IMG/VR virus record: IMGVR_UViG_3300013902_000267
From: a virus
Taxonomy: Duplodnaviria; Heunggongvirae; Uroviricota; Caudoviricetes
Length of the DNA stretch: 64,000 nucleotides
Strand: one strand, 5' to 3'
Below, piece after piece: positions 2,756 through 27,806 of this stretch (positions within the stretch are counted from its first letter, which is position 1; every line of letters begins with the position of its first letter). The position numbers and the translations under genes are program-made. Under the pieces are notes generated by a model. The model made no database searches. It saw nothing but the letters and a program-made list of their open reading frames with translations, and was not told the origin of the DNA.

Positions 2756-4540
2756 TTAATTAAGTTCCAACCAAGTTACACGTTTGTCAAGTTTTGCAAC
2801 AAGTTTTGCAAGAGCTTCGATTGTCTTCTCATTGTATACATCAATTGATTTCTCTACATCTTCACCAGCAAACTGAACAGTGTAAGTTGTCTTACCGCCT
2901 GTAACATTAAGAGCAAACTCCTCATTAACATCTGCTTCTGCAGGAACTGTAATTGCAACATCGTTATCAGCAGAATTAACAGCAACTGCCTTATTTTCAA
3001 CTGTTTGTAAACGTGTTTCGTGATCATTGAATGCATCTGCGATTACCTCTTCATCAGATACTAATTCACCTGCAACGTCAGCTGCAGTAGCAAGACCGGT
3101 TGCATTATTATTTGTACCTGCAACCCATTTACCAGAATCTGTATTCTTTGTAAGACCAACTGAACCAAGAGCAGAAGTCTTAACTTCAACTTCATGATTA
3201 TCAACTGCAACAAAATTCTCAGAACCTGCCTTTACAGAAAGTTTAGGAAGTTCTGCATGTACTACTTTAATCTTACCATTTTCCTGTGAAACTGCAGATA
3301 CATACTTACCTTCTTCTGCGTTATCTGTAACATCAAGTGCTTCAATTGCAGAAGTTGCAGCTTTTTCTGTAGTCTTGATAGACTTAGCTAAACTTGCAAT
3401 CTGTGCATCAACCTTATCACCTTCAACAGCAACAGTATCATCAGTTGCAACAATAGCTTCAGCTGCAACACCATTAGCTTCAAGATTAGCAGAATCAACA
3501 GTCAAATTACCATTTGCATCAACATGTACTCCCGATACATATTTACCATCACCAGCAGTTGCATCACTTACAGCATGTTTCTTAGCTTCAAGATCTTCCA
3601 ATCTCTTATGAATACCAGTAGCTGCTGTGCTTGCATCAGACGGTGTACCAATTTCTGCTTTATTATGAGCAACATCTGCAATAAGTTCTTTACCAGTTTC
3701 AGTTTCATCTACCTCTTTAAACCAATCAATAACTTCAACTACCTTATTGATTACATTATCTTCATCAGGATTCTATACATCACCCATAATAGTTTCAATA
3801 TTAGTGACACGTGTATCTAACTTACCTTCTGCTGTTGTAGCACGATCTGCTTCTTTAGCAATCTTTCCAAATGCAGTTTCCTAAGTCTTATCATCATCAA
3901 CAGTGCCAAGAAGTTCTGCGGAAGCAATGTCGTCCTCTGAAATGGTTACTACTTTCTTATCAGAAACTGCAACCTTTACATGACCGGTTTCTTTCTTTTC
4001 TACAGTTGTATAATCAGCATTCTCAAGTTCATCAATACGATCTGAAAGTTCACCTTCTGCTGTTGTAGCACGATCTGTTTCCTTTGCGATAGCGCCAAAT
4101 ACAGTATCTACATCCTTTGAATCTGCTTTAGATCCAACAGTTGTTTCCAATGTAGAAACTCTATCAGCAAGGCTCTTAAGTTTAGTATCAGCTGAAACAG
4201 GAATATCAAGAGTCTTAACAGTCTTATCTGTATCAACATAAGAAACAGTAACAGTTGCTTCAGATTTAACTTCACCTGTAATTCCATCAATATTAGCAGG
4301 AGTAGATTTAATATTTAAAATCTTTGAAGAAACAATCTTACCACGAGCAACGATAGCGCCTGTATTATTTGCTTCATCATAACCAAAATAAATAACACCA
4401 TCATCAGGAGTTCCTACTTTTTCAAGTACCTTATCAAGTGTACCATAACCAAAGTTTACTTCTACACCATCGCCAGCAATAGGAGCACCAAATATAACAG
4501 GAGTATTATCCTTATTTGATTTCTTAATTGTAATAGCCAT
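2756..4540 (-). CDS. 594-aa tail-fibre-like coiled-coil protein (TAG readthrough)
   Basis: 3881..4540 and 2756..3601 share a frame joined by TAGs; repeats AKETDRATTAEGEL / AKEADRATTAEGKL. Confidence 0.75.
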
Positions 4541-12806: not shown

Positions 12807-13850
12807 TTACTTTACAGTAACAATAGCAACACGACCAAAATCATCATCCATACCATGACCTGTAGCATCAGTTACCTTAACACCACGAGACTCAAGATAC
12901 TTCTTAACTGCTGTTGCACGAGCATCAGACAATGCCTTATTATGCTTCTTAGCACTCTTAGGTTCCTGAGATGCATAAGCGTCTACAACTACAGTTGTTC
13001 CTTCAGGAATTGCATCAAGTACAGACTTACACTTTGCACTCAAATTTGAGCTATTAAACTTAAATGGTGCAACAAATACATTCTGTGCATAACCACTTGC
13101 ATTTGTAACAGGTTTCTCTACAATCTTCTCAATTACCTGTGGCTCACGAGACTCAAGTTCATTAATCTTTTTATTAAGAGCATCAATCTCTGCCTGATCA
13201 TAAAGCTTTGCCTTTGCAAATGAACGTGTTCCATTTGAATTCTTGAAACGATAAACAACACCTGCAGTAATCTCAAAACTACCATTCTTCTTTACAAGCT
13301 TGCCATTATCAATATCATTCCATACAACAGAAGGATTTACAACAATACCCCATGCACGCTCCTTACCAAGATTAAAATTAAACTCTGCACCAGCACGATA
13401 AGTCATCCAGTTATTATGATCTGCACCATAACCTGCAGTCTGATGACCCCAACCAAGACCTGTATAAACAACAGGTTCAAAGAACTTACGTGTTCCATCA
13501 AACTTAAATACATTAGCAAGATTTACCTTACCATAACCACTTACATTTACATAATCAAATGCAGTGTATGTATTATAACTACCATGACCTGTTCCAATAA
13601 GTGTACGACCTTCAATACCAAATCCCAACCATGGTGTTACATACTTATCTGCACCAACTACAATAATAGGTGCCATTGCTGTATGACCACTATAGAAATT
13701 GTCAAATGATGTAAGAACACCACCCTGAAGTGTTACTGAAACATTATCAGTAAACTTACTAGAACCTGCATAATCATTCTGTACCTGTGCATTAATTGTA
13801 CCAATTGCAAATGTAAACATTGCAATCAACATAAAAATAAACTTCTTCAT
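12807..13850 (-). CDS. ompA: OmpA-family outer membrane protein (Bacteroidetes type)
   Basis: Signal peptide, beta-barrel ending GVVYRF, coiled linker, OmpA_C-like domain (FKFNSS, DAYAS, NKALSDARATAVKKYL); no TAG. Confidence 0.85.
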   Translation of the reverse strand: MKKFIFMLIAMFTFAIGTINAQVQNDYAGSSKFTDNVSVTLQGGVLTSFDNFYSGHTAMAPIIVVGADKYVTPWLGFGIEGRTLIGTGHGSYNTYTAFDYVNVSGYGKVNLANVFKFDGTRKFFEPVVYTGLGWGHQTAGYGADHNNWMTYRAGAEFNFNLGKERAWGIVVNPSVVWNDIDNGKLVKKNGSFEITAGVVYRFKNSNGTRSFAKAKLYDQAEIDALNKKINELESREPQVIEKIVEKPVTNASGYAQNVFVAPFKFNSSNLSAKCKSVLDAIPEGTTVVVDAYASQEPKSAKKHNKALSDARATAVKKYLESRGVKVTDATGHGMDDDFGRVAIVTVK

Positions 13851-13856
13851 AGTTTT
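13831..13856 (-). repeat. 26-bp direct repeat copy covering the ompA start codon
   Basis: AAAACTATGAAGAAGTTTATTTTTAT at 13831-13856 and 13971-13996. Confidence 0.95.
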
Positions 13857-13935
13857 TCTTTTAATTTAAAATTTGTTATTAACTAAAAAATTATTTGTTT
13901 AAAATATTTGATTTATTAAAAATCATTATCATAAT

Positions 13936-13973
13936 AATATATAATAAACTTCTTAAAAAGTTTACATTTTATA
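13936..13973 (-). promoter_or_regulatory. Phage TAAACT-N17-TATATT promoter for ompA, containing a 27-bp repeat
   Basis: TAAACT 13959-13964, TATATT 13936-13941; 13947-13973 is identical to 15292-15318. Confidence 0.7.
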
Positions 13974-14125
13974 AAAATAAACTTCTTCATAGTTTTAGTT
14001 TTTATTTATACTAAAAACCTATATTTCTTGTTTCATAAATACATTATATATTAAATTTATATATAATTCATATCTCCACAAGCTTAAATTCGGTAAAACT
14101 CAACCCTATTTAATATTTTAAATAA
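13971..14125 (-). ncRNA. Putative TnpB omega-RNA (scaffold plus guide)
   Basis: Directly 3' of tnpB: GGGTTGAGTTTTACCGAATTTAAGCTTGTGGAG ... ATGAAACAAGAA, hairpin GTTTTTA/TAAAAAC, then the ompA-matching 26-mer; resembles IS200/IS605 right-end RNAs; boundaries uncertain. Confidence 0.6.
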
Positions 14126-15259
14126 TTATAAATTAATTTGTCTTAATCCTTCTGATAAAATATTCAAAGAAGCATTATAATCTCTATCTATTAAAGATTT
14201 ACAATGTGGACATATCCACTTGCGCTAACTTAGTTTTAAATCTTTATAAATATATCCACAATTATGACATGTCTTTGATGAAGGATAGAATCTATCTATT
14301 ATAACTAAATTTTTATTATACCTATTACACTTATATTCAAGTTGTCGTCTGAACTCAAATAAACTTAATTCCTATATGGACTTAGATAGTTTATGATTAG
14401 ACATCATTCCATTTACATTTAAATCTTCAATACAGATAACTTGGTTCTCATTAACTAGTTTTGAAGTTATTTGATGTAAATAATTTAATCTCTAATTCTT
14501 TATTTTCTCATGAACTTTTGCAATTTTAACTCTTACTTTATTTCTATTAATACTGTCTTTCTATTTCTTAAATAATTGCCTCTATAATTTCTTTAATTTA
14601 TTTTCTTGATTTTTATAAAAATGCTTATTCTCATATCTATTTCCATTTGAATCAACAATAAAATCTTTAATTCCTAAATCTAATCCTATTACATTATCTA
14701 ACTTTTCTTTTTCTTTAATATTATAATCAATACATATTGATAGATAATATTTGTTTGTAGAAGTTTTAGTAAGAGTAACAAAATGAATTTTATCTTGATT
14801 ATGATTTAAATATATTTCATCTTTTCTTGAACACTTAAATAATATATTTTTTAACTACTTTATTAAAGTTATTCTATTTCCTCTAATTTTTTTATTTTTA
14901 AACTTAAACATTGAATTAGTAAATCTGCAAGATTGTTTAGCATCTTTTTTAGATTTAAATTTAGGATAATATGTATATGATTTTAAAAAATTATCATATG
15001 CTTTAATTACATCTATCATTGATTGCTATAAACATGCATTATATACATCATTTAAAAAAGAATATTCATCTTGCTTCCTTAAAGAAACTAAATATTTACC
15101 TAACTATGATAAAGAAACAGATTGCTTATATTGTTTATATATTAATTTTTTATAATCTAATAATTTATTATATATAAATCTACAACAACCTAATTGTTTA
15201 GAAATAAATTCTTTCTAAGCAACATCAGGATATATTCTTATTTTAATAGATTTGATCAT
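14126..15259 (-). CDS. tnpB: TnpB RNA-guided endonuclease, 377 aa, TAG-recoded (absent from ORF track)
   Basis: MIKSIKIRIYP..GCCRFIYN, LQQS, RuvC IGLDLG / CIEDL / DRDYNA, Zn finger CHNCG..CPHC; at least 8 in-frame TAGs; no tnpA nearby. Confidence 0.92.
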
Positions 15260-15280
15260 ATACAATAAAATTATTTATAT

Positions 15281-15318
15281 AATATAAAATTAACTTCTTA
15301 AAAAGTTTACATTTTATA
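15281..15318 (-). promoter_or_regulatory. Phage TAAACT-N17-TATATT promoter for tnpB
   Basis: TAAACT 15304-15309, TATATT 15281-15286; shares 27 identical bp with the ompA promoter. Confidence 0.7.
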
Positions 15319-15328
15319 GAAATATTTT

Positions 15329-15997
15329 TCAAATTGGTTTTGGACAAAGTTTAACTAACTTACTTCTCAACGAATTTAATATAGGTTTAAACTTAGTTTT
15401 ATATTCATCCCAATTATTACCCATCATTTGAATCTTTATCCAATATGGATTTGCTTCACTATAATCATATATCTTTCCATATTCTGCAATTTGAATACCA
15501 AACATATATAATCTTATACAATGAAAAATAGATTTTTTTGCCCTATATAAATCATAATCTTTTTCTATAATTAATTTCTTATGACATTTTGCATATGAGT
15601 TATTAACAATAGAAGAAATAACTTTCCTTAATTTCCATTTATCAAGAATGAAATAATTCGCGTATAACGAGTTAAATTTTTCAAAACTATCATACATACT
15701 ACTTTTCATAAATAAGCTCTCTAACGCGATTATATGATGTTCATATAGCATCTTTTTAAATGTATTATTATTGATAATCTGAAAATCAAAATCAATAGCA
15801 TTTCCATCAAATACATGAAGTTCCGTTATACCATTATAATCATCTGTTAATTTAATATCATCATCTACAATAACAATAATATCCTTATCTGATTTTTCAT
15901 TATTAGTCCCATATACATAAGATCCATGCATAAAAGATAATATATAATGTTCACGTATATTTAATGGTAAACATTCCTTTATAAGTTTCCAATCCAT
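15329..15997 (-). CDS. Pol-beta-superfamily nucleotidyltransferase
   Basis: HGSYVYGTNNEKSDKDII (GS..DxD motif) plus helical C-terminal region. Confidence 0.75.
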   Translation of the reverse strand: MDWKLIKECLPLNIREHYILSFMHGSYVYGTNNEKSDKDIIVIVDDDIKLTDDYNGITELHVFDGNAIDFDFQIINNNTFKKMLYEHHIIALESLFMKSSMYDSFEKFNSLYANYFILDKWKLRKVISSIVNNSYAKCHKKLIIEKDYDLYRAKKSIFHCIRLYMFGIQIAEYGKIYDYSEANPYWIKIQMMGNNWDEYKTKFKPILNSLRSKLVKLCPKPI

Positions 15998-27096: not shown

Positions 27097-27315
27097 ATGA
27101 TTTATGAAATGAATGTTAAAGAAGAACCAGATATTTTTAATGAATTAAAAAAATATCTTCAAAATACATATAAACTTTCTGTTGTTGAATCTATTAATTT
27201 AATAGGTAAAATAGAAAATTTAATTAGAAAAGAAACCGATAAAATTATAAAAAATAGAAAACCATTTGAAATTGATTTTAATAAAATTGATTTAGATGAT
27301 ATTTTAGATGTTTAA
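27097..27315 (+). CDS. Hypothetical protein
   Basis: 72-aa ORF. Confidence 0.65.
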   Translation: MIYEMNVKEEPDIFNELKKYLQNTYKLSVVESINLIGKIENLIRKETDKIIKNRKPFEIDFNKIDLDDILDV

Positions 27316-27335
27316 AAATAATTAATTGTTAACAA

Positions 27336-27806
27336 ATGAGTTTATATAAATATCCAAGTATACATGGTTTGAAGGATATTGCAATGATTTATAATGATTC
27401 TGAATGGGATAATGCAAAACTTAAAGTGTGGGATCCTGAATATCAAAGAGAATATAATATATCATTTACAGGTTCTACAAGACCAACTGAAACTGAACCA
27501 GGTATAGTAAGTTTCAATATATCAAAAGTAAAAGACGAAAAATCTGCTGATGAAAAATCAATAGATATTTATTTAGATAAAAGATTTCCTAATATATCTA
27601 AATTAGAGAGAAACAAATATGAATTGATTTTTAGAGCAGGTGTTGAATATGGAAAGAATGTAAGTAAAAAAGATTTACTTAAAGAATTATTTAAATCACC
27701 ATGTGAAAAATGTGGTAGTTATATGATGTCAGATAATTGTATTTGTAATAAATTATATAACTATTGTGATTTTATAGAAGAAATAAAGAAAAGGATAGAG
27801 AAATAA
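27336..27806 (+). CDS. Hypothetical protein with C-terminal Cys cluster
   Basis: 156-aa ORF; CEKC..C.C..C. Confidence 0.7.
   Translation: MSLYKYPSIHGLKDIAMIYNDSEWDNAKLKVWDPEYQREYNISFTGSTRPTETEPGIVSFNISKVKDEKSADEKSIDIYLDKRFPNISKLERNKYELIFRAGVEYGKNVSKKDLLKELFKSPCEKCGSYMMSDNCICNKLYNYCDFIEEIKKRIEK

Follow-up and report, generated by a model that had tools for sequence, protein, structure and literature searches.

Why should a phage gene for an RNA-guided nuclease stand beside an ompA-family gene, with a perfect copy of the start of that gene placed where the nuclease would be expected to find its guide? The question is raised by a 64,000-nucleotide stretch of viral DNA (IMG/VR record IMGVR_UViG_3300013902_000267; Caudoviricetes), referred to here as the window, in which a tnpB gene lies between a nucleotidyltransferase (NTase) gene and an ompA-family gene. 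The original prediction, made from the letters of the window, had described a domesticated TnpB directed at ompA through this copy; the observation is confirmed by our analysis and the interpretation is partly supported. The tnpB copy of the window (WIN; labels such as L003 or L006 denote the loci compared with it) can be recognized from its sequence as a TnpB/omega-RNA element of the IS200/IS605 family, IS1341-like in type, which has neither a left end (LE) nor tnpA and is resident in the Lak megaphages. It is truncated, belongs to a TnpB family resident in phages and has a relic flank as its guide; most likely it is a selfish homing module. All features of the locus are on the minus strand:

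15329..15997, minus strand: NTase gene, 222 aa, the upstream neighbour (Pfam Polbeta/NTP_transf_2), which adjoins ompA without tnpB in L020/L021 and Lak-A1/A2/C1.
15292..15318, minus strand: R2 copy 1, a 27-nt perfect repeat of native NTase-ompA intergenic sequence, now just upstream of tnpB (exact pair with 13947-13973).
15260..15291, minus strand: 32-nt spacer from R2 to the tnpB ATG, with a weak and ambiguous likeness to the family LE (upstream comparison of 17 loci).
14126..15259, minus strand: tnpB, 377 aa, with nine in-frame TAG codons read as Gln and with RuvC D/E/D and CxxC..CxxC intact (open reading frame (ORF), Pfam and structure alignment).
13989..14112, minus strand: omega-RNA scaffold and right end (RE) (11-locus alignment and consensus fold).
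14019-13997, minus strand: RE hairpin, within the omega-RNA/RE region.
13996-13989, minus strand: RE tail AAAACTAT, directly after the RE hairpin.
13971..13988, minus strand: putative guide template of 18 nt, comprising the G of a relic ATG and ompA codons 2-7 (in part), identical to 13848-13831.
13971..13996, minus strand: R1 copy A, a 26-mer made of 8 nt of RE tail and 18 nt of ompA start (perfect repeat).
13947..13973, minus strand: R2 copy 2, overlapping R1 copy A by TAT (junction by microhomology).
13857..13946, minus strand: native-like ompA upstream region of about 90 nt, colinear with the empty Lak-A/C site up to ...AAATTTTAAATT.
13831..13856, minus strand: R1 copy B, the real ompA start (ATG 13850-13848), preceded by the RE-tail-like AAAACT.
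12807..13850, minus strand: ompA-family gene, 347 aa, with no in-frame TAG (ORF and Pfam).

The duplication is exact, as had been claimed: the 26-mer has two occurrences, 13971-13996 and 13831-13856 on the minus strand, with 0 mismatches, and 0/100 shuffles gave any match at three or fewer mismatches. Copy A opens a dead-end frame of 24 codons. The second repeat, R2, was no part of the original prediction; it forms a perfect 27-mer pair (15292-15318 and 13947-13973; 0/100 shuffles matched), and its core TAAACTTTTTAA is found in the empty Lak-A site. The R1 repeat can be extended to 38 nt if three mismatches are allowed, and a repeat of 83 nt at 76% identity reaches beyond the 27-nt R2 core; both the 12-nt extension of the one and the surplus of the other are probably chance similarities of AT-rich DNA, and the perfect cores alone were counted. 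R2 was also considered as a recurrent promoter, but the window holds no further close copies of it, and sites resembling sigma-70 promoters or terminators did not exceed their frequency in shuffled sequence. The window comes from a Lak-B Prevotella megaphage. The region is 99.6% identical to the Prevotella phages Lak-B1, B3, B6 and B9; Lak-A1, A2 and C1 match it in the two flanking genes only. As seven independent assemblies (Lak-B1, B3, B6 and B9, two IMG/VR contigs and one ENA contig) show the same order with its two repeats, the assembly artefact that might have undone the prediction can be set aside.

The protein encoded beside this repeat has the features of a working nuclease. The tnpB frame (15259..14126) needs genetic code 15 to stay open, and its product matches OrfB_IS605 (PF01385, 1.6e-24), Cas12f1-like TNB (PF07282, 1.4e-22) and HTH_OrfB_IS605 (PF12323, 9.8e-16) in Pfam and aligns over its full length with ISDra2 TnpB (8BF8, E=1e-55), the motifs GLDLG, IEDL and DRDYN falling on D191, E278 and D361 of the latter. 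The code-15 ORF and this alignment thereby bear out the predicted 377-aa TnpB with an intact RuvC triad; the C-terminus is likewise complete, and judged on these features the protein is likely active. The reported lack of tnpA also stands, and reaches further than the locus. No tnpA adjoins tnpB, whose neighbours are the NTase and OmpA-family genes, and a search for the Y1 transposase domain (PF01797) gave no match over the cut-off in the complete genomes of Lak-A1, A2, B1 and C1, with controls giving matches. A complete IS605/IS1341 transposon has a Y1 (HUH) TnpA and both ends; WIN has no such TnpA, and of the two ends the RE hairpin is kept and the LE is absent.

WIN is far from alone. TnpB relatives at 62-98% identity occupy 17 loci in Lak-like contigs, with four tnpB copies in Lak-B1 and two to three close ones each in Lak-A1, A2 and C1; the literature searched contained no report of TnpB in Lak phages. 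Pairs of paralogues are separated by synonymous divergences (dS) of 0.5-1.1 at ratios of nonsynonymous to synonymous change (dN/dS) of 0.08-0.26 and share their TAG positions. The family is thus an old resident held under purifying selection, and neither a recent arrival nor a single tamed gene. The description of the gene as domesticated is not supported: it is one of two to four copies per Lak genome, in an old family with conserved right ends and omega-RNAs. At 7 of the 11 distinct loci (WIN, L004, L005, L006, L008, L015 and L017), moreover, the AT that ends the element tail forms a start codon with the next G, and opens a downstream ORF of 48-347 aa. A guide taken from the first codons of the neighbouring gene is thus the rule of the family and nothing special to ompA.

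In Lak-C1 a tnpB at 50% identity (L041, MK250029 210208-211332) has no TAG and is perhaps a more recent arrival from a genome with the standard code. The element-free allele at the site of the L017 element (L029/L030, Lak-A1 about 89170-89210) contains some 16 nt resembling the outer part of the left side of the element as well as an RE-tail-like stretch before the ATG, and its codons 2-3 differ from those of the occupied allele; this "empty" allele may have been left by a deletion and not be a naive site.

In ISDra2 the guide consists of about 16 nt of flanking sequence, and cleavage depends on a transposon-associated motif (TAM), 15-21 bp from which the DNA is cut; any TnpB element will by default have its own flank as guide (PMC8612924). 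The original prediction had let the RE stop at the hairpin (...AAAAACT), so that the whole 26-mer including AAAACTAT would be flank and guide. The perfect repeat does begin at AAAAC, and in L017 and L006 the sequence past the hairpin loop resembles the native leader of the empty site, but we regard this boundary as improbable given three observations from other loci. L014 and L015 share their tail up to ...GAGCTAT and then diverge; of the 8 nt common to them after the hairpin, TAT alone is present at their empty sites in Lak-A1, where the flanks are 95-99% identical and the junction holds nothing else of the tail. The tail AAAACTAT, followed by G, stands before three unrelated genes (WIN at ompA, L004 and L006), yet is rare at native starts: AAAACTATG is found at 1/91 ORF starts in the window, namely that of ompA itself. 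Finally, the native flank copy at L009 reads TTTAC where the element has ATATT. Together these place the right end at 13989, so that the guide template is probably 13988-13971, 18 nt covering ompA codons 1-7, and the first 8 bases of the 26-mer probably belong to the element as its RE tail. What remains of the earlier claim is that the sequence beside the RE copies the ompA start, as expected of a guide template; its start has to be moved by 8 nt.

Can an RNA bearing this guide still be made into a functional scaffold? The predicted omega-RNA-like region with its hairpin is present and is conserved in 10 paralogous loci. It comprises a 5' hairpin, a long-range CUUG/CAAG stem, further helices, the GAAACAAGAAA block and an RE hairpin with covarying arms, and scaffold blocks, hairpin and tail are conserved across the 11 distinct loci (WIN and the 10 paralogous ones), the tail after the hairpin being 6-10 nt long and ending in TAT (CTT in L003). 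In WIN, however, two blocks that are invariant in 10/10 paralogues, CCAACTATGGATGA and CTAAAAAGTAG, are lost, and a short AT hairpin or palindrome stands in their place, a change that the original prediction did not describe. According to the consensus fold the core helices of WIN are kept through one- or two-sided, compensatory changes. The helices that close its shortened distal arm are also retained, one of them by change on both sides, and single-sequence minimum free energy folds give WIN the same architecture as the full-length paralogue L006; on this basis the modelled scaffold is read as shortened but probably functional, although with real doubt. No match to omega-RNA, HEARO, IS605-orfB or group I intron families emerged when the window region and four full elements were scanned against Rfam. 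The idea of an IStron was accordingly dropped, there being no intron family at E<=1 in the four full elements or the window. A loss at the other side of the element likewise went beyond what had been predicted: nine paralogous loci have in common a conserved LE, 185-270 nt in length and containing a long hairpin that covaries, and the upstream comparison of 17 loci shows that WIN and the L009 type lack it.

Such losses raise the possibility that WIN is inert, a decaying and immobile remnant whose copy of the ompA start is a scar of insertion or rearrangement and whose TnpB-RNA pair no longer does anything. The missing LE, the lack of a TnpA in Lak genomes and the replaced middle of the omega-RNA all fit this, as do 8 changes in WIN TnpB at positions invariant in the other 10 proteins, the joint highest count among the copies; a Lak-B1 paralogue with an in-frame TAA shows that decay occurs in the family. 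The coding sequence tells against it. The frame is open over 377 codons with catalytic and zinc-binding residues intact, dN/dS of WIN against every paralogue is low (0.15-0.26 at dS 0.5-1.1), a constraint the same as among the other copies, and both of the 2 single-nucleotide polymorphisms that separate WIN tnpB from other Lak-B phages are synonymous. With the compensatory changes that keep the scaffold helices, this makes inertness a reading to be taken seriously, but an unlikely one.

The history of the locus can be read from the sites that have no element. In Lak-A1/A2/C1 and three IMG/VR contigs the NTase gene, the intergenic region and ompA follow each other without tnpB, and the ompA start is preceded by TTAAAGT where WIN has AAAACT, the sequence further upstream being colinear. 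Compared with this order WIN contains two novel junctions, one between R2 and the truncated element and one between ompA codon 7 and R2 through their shared TAT. Since the 26-mer can arise only by joining an RE tail to the ompA start, the element must have been inserted at the ompA start codon; in the sequence of events that we propose, an ancestor of Lak-B took this insertion, which would have made ompA codons 1-7 the guide template. A later local rearrangement would have removed the left end, placed a copy of the native intergenic sequence and the ompA start with its RE tail downstream, and so created the two perfect repeats of 26 and 27 nt. It could have proceeded by unequal recombination of an element-bearing allele with a deletion-footprint allele, or by tandem duplication followed by deletions. 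The simpler history mentioned in the original prediction, insertion at the ompA ATG and then a duplication restoring the upstream region, agrees with the empty Lak-A/C site and the RE-tail-like stretch at ompA. That the rearrangement junction at protospacer position +18 marks a TnpB cut was considered in view of the 15-21 bp cutting distance of ISDra2; this is speculation, as repeats at the other duplicated loci measure 28-62 nt.

The intergenic spacer between NTase and ompA has received other sequence as well: in a 553-kb Lak-like contig (L022:3100-3500, IMGVR_UViG_3300045988_166570) it holds a different insertion of about 330 nt.

What, then, would a nuclease with this guide recognize? We lean towards the view that the relic flank serves as the guide of a selfish homing nuclease, which likely targets element-free ompA alleles, rather than of a tamed ompA regulator. 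As tnpB needs TAG to be read as glutamine, the TnpB-omega-RNA complex, if it is still made, would be made late in infection. It would spare the ompA of its own phage, where the 5' side of the protospacer has the same 8 bases as the guide template; whatever spares the template spares this ompA equally. In the element-free alleles of related Lak phages, by contrast, it would recognize the 18-nt protospacer behind AAAGTAT. The ompA genes of Lak-A/C keep this protospacer at 18/18 although the genes are about 15% diverged, with AAAGTAT as the 5' flank. Cutting such alleles in co-infection could favour the genome region of the carrier through repair or exclusion. The locus thus has the layout of a homing gene, present or absent between two conserved genes (NTase and ompA) with an intact target in the empty allele, and homing between co-infecting phages is a recognised category, one that has been discussed for TnpB (PMC13565253) and is demonstrated for homing endonucleases made of protein. 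Among the functions first proposed, the most plausible on these sequence comparisons is homing against the ompA alleles of related phages, the own allele being shielded by its 5' flank.

Several points weigh against this reading and it should be interpreted with corresponding caution. Lak-A and Lak-B are known from genomes of different host origin (human and baboon faeces), which leaves their co-infection hypothetical. The loss of the CCAACTATGGATGA and CTAAAAAGTAG middle blocks could inactivate the WIN omega-RNA. The reconstructed history requires at least 2-3 events, and neither an element fused to full ompA nor a footprint-only allele, either of which would be an intermediate, was present among viral contigs searched with the ompA-start 20-mer or metagenome contigs searched with the 26-mer, where the locus was either arranged as in Lak-B or empty as in Lak-A/C. 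A further difficulty lies in the TAM. TnpB TAMs are 4-6 nt long. From the left flanks and nine pairs of occupied and empty sites no TAM could be derived, the junction being clean in L014 and L015 only, with one TAT common to both sides, and the boundaries of the other pairs blurred by AT-richness, flanking duplications or footprint-like remnants. The empty sites have (A/T)AT 5' of the protospacer and the RE tail likewise ends in TAT; TAT thus lies on both sides, and the ompA alleles of Lak-A/C may not be cleavable.

The identical 8-nt flank bears equally on the proposal that TnpB, made late, binds the ompA start of its own phage and shuts the gene off without cutting. Nuclease-dead, TnpB-derived repressors (TldRs) are found beside prophage fliC (10.1101/2023.11.30.569447) and offer a precedent; the match of 18 nt to a gene start 140 bp away is perfect, and tnpB needs TAG=Gln where ompA does not, so that the two could be expressed at different times. 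However, RuvC is inactivated or truncated in TldRs (10.1101/2023.11.30.569447), and the intact triad of WIN argues against such a role: a nuclease bound there would cut its own genome. The 8 nt on the 5' side of the ompA site equal those of the guide template, leaving no distinct TAM, which argues against self-repression as well as self-cleavage. The layout of RE joined to a start codon is also found at six unrelated genes and hence characterises the element family, not ompA. A bind-only repressor of the own ompA is thus very improbable.

Less credible still, and in our estimate next to negligible, is the use of the guide as a weapon against a host (Prevotella) ompA that starts with the same bases, which would let the phage OmpA replace that of the host. 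The phage does carry its own OmpA, and MKKFIF is a common signal-peptide start. Exact matches to the 20-mer, sought in one genome per species, were present in 70 of about 185,000 species genomes, spread over many phyla with one in the Prevotellaceae, but none of these 70 genes is an OmpA homologue by BLASTP; all OmpA homologues starting with the 20-mer sit on phage contigs. The guide has an 18-nt match at the ompA coding start, with a 5' flank equal to the RE tail, and no host target was found in this search.

The conservation of the 20-mer is a feature in its own right. OmpA homologues of 31-35% identity to the protein of the window in other large phage contigs (L055, L057, L059, L061, L069 and L074) begin with the identical 20 nt, ATG AAG AAG TTT ATT TTT AT, an unusually strong nucleotide conservation at the 5' end; the search pattern was the exact 20-mer, and homologues that start differently would have gone unseen.

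WIN can be compared with three known systems. With ISDra2 TnpB and the IS200/IS605 and IS1341-type elements (PDB 8BF8/8EXA; PMC8612924) WIN shares the domain set, the full-length alignment including the RuvC triad, a structured RNA that runs from the 3' end of tnpB through the RE with the flank as guide, and a subterminal RE hairpin; as in IS1341, no tnpA accompanies it. Unlike ISDra2 and IS1341, it is resident in a lytic megaphage with the TAG=Gln code, its TAG positions are shared among paralogues, four complete Lak genomes searched contain no TnpA, and the REs of its family are regularly fused to start codons; unlike full IS605/IS1341 elements, it has no LE and a shortened scaffold. The free-standing homing endonuclease genes of T4-like phages (SegA-G, MobA-E) bring about intronless homing and localized marker exclusion. 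Like these, the WIN nuclease gene has a conserved phage gene on either side and is missing from related phages, and its predicted target is the homologous site of a relative, differences near the site being what would protect the carrier. Recognition by WIN, which is known from its sequence, would however rely on an RNA guide and a TAM and not on protein. Like the TldRs, WIN is phage-borne, lacks complete transposon ends, lies beside a surface-protein gene and has a guide matching the 5' region of such a gene, and the carrier's own copy differs in flank or seed; unlike them it has an intact RuvC and matches the coding start and not the promoter, its target copy is in cis with a flank identical to that of the guide template, and no host target was found.

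TnpB is known in bacteria as a nuclease that retains transposons. Its role in lytic phages is, to our knowledge, largely conjecture. The tnpB family of the Lak phages, with the recoded code of the phage, no TnpA in four complete genomes and several loci per genome under purifying selection, makes these phages a natural case in which to ask if RNA-guided nucleases drive homing or exclusion between co-infecting phages, and the Lak-B guide with the ompA start of Lak-A/C gives a concrete pair of guide and target. The match between guide and ompA itself follows in the ordinary way from where the element landed, and a domesticated regulator directed at ompA is unsupported.

A broader proposal, which we offer as tentative and rather doubtful, is that Lak megaphages maintain a tnpA-independent family of RNA-guided homing genes that forms a module of inter-phage exclusion or gene drive at ompA. 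Start codons and gene ends would be the places where its elements insert or to which they are copied; the elements would restore the start codon with their RE tail, and leave behind duplicated or recoded copies of the target and footprints that immunise the carrier. At the ompA locus the weapon would be the guide to the conserved 5' end of ompA, and the immunised target the own ompA with its RE tail.

The observations on the family that were made along the way may hold more interest than the ompA locus itself. In canonical IS200/IS605 peel-and-paste transposition the target is not duplicated. Several Lak copies, unlike this, are bracketed by long and diverged direct copies of their target: 51 nt in L003 (2350-2410 and 3905-3960), about 62 nt in L009 (2939-3000 and 4283-4346) and 28 nt in L008 (around 2740-2800 and 4286-4320). 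In all three the copy joined to the interrupted gene keeps the reading frame, and wherever the two copies differ in L003 and L009 the site is synonymous. Target-primed reverse transcription, considered for 5'-truncated copies with flanking repeats, was set aside as the repeat copies differ from each other.

With the exception of ompA, each element-free allele that was found deviates from the guide at one or more of positions 2-16; mismatches in the guide region of empty alleles number 10/100 against a background of 25/500, a difference that is suggestive only. One such allele lies in the window itself. Positions 27313-27338 (plus strand; gene start at 27336) are the empty site of the second tnpB of Lak-B1 (L039, MK250020 230749-231879), a copy absent from the phage of the window, and the flanks are 98.4-98.7% identical to the Lak-B1 locus. 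The empty allele differs from the copy-2 guide at positions 7 and 10, both changes being synonymous, and shows no mismatch in the next 100 nt. The Lak-B1 copy has an in-frame TAA besides 13 TAG and may be a pseudogene. Lastly, two family members in the 553-kb contig have RNA genes a few kb upstream of them, namely a tmRNA gene and four clustered tRNA genes (L008:176-571 and L014:507-1395; Rfam, above the gathering score).

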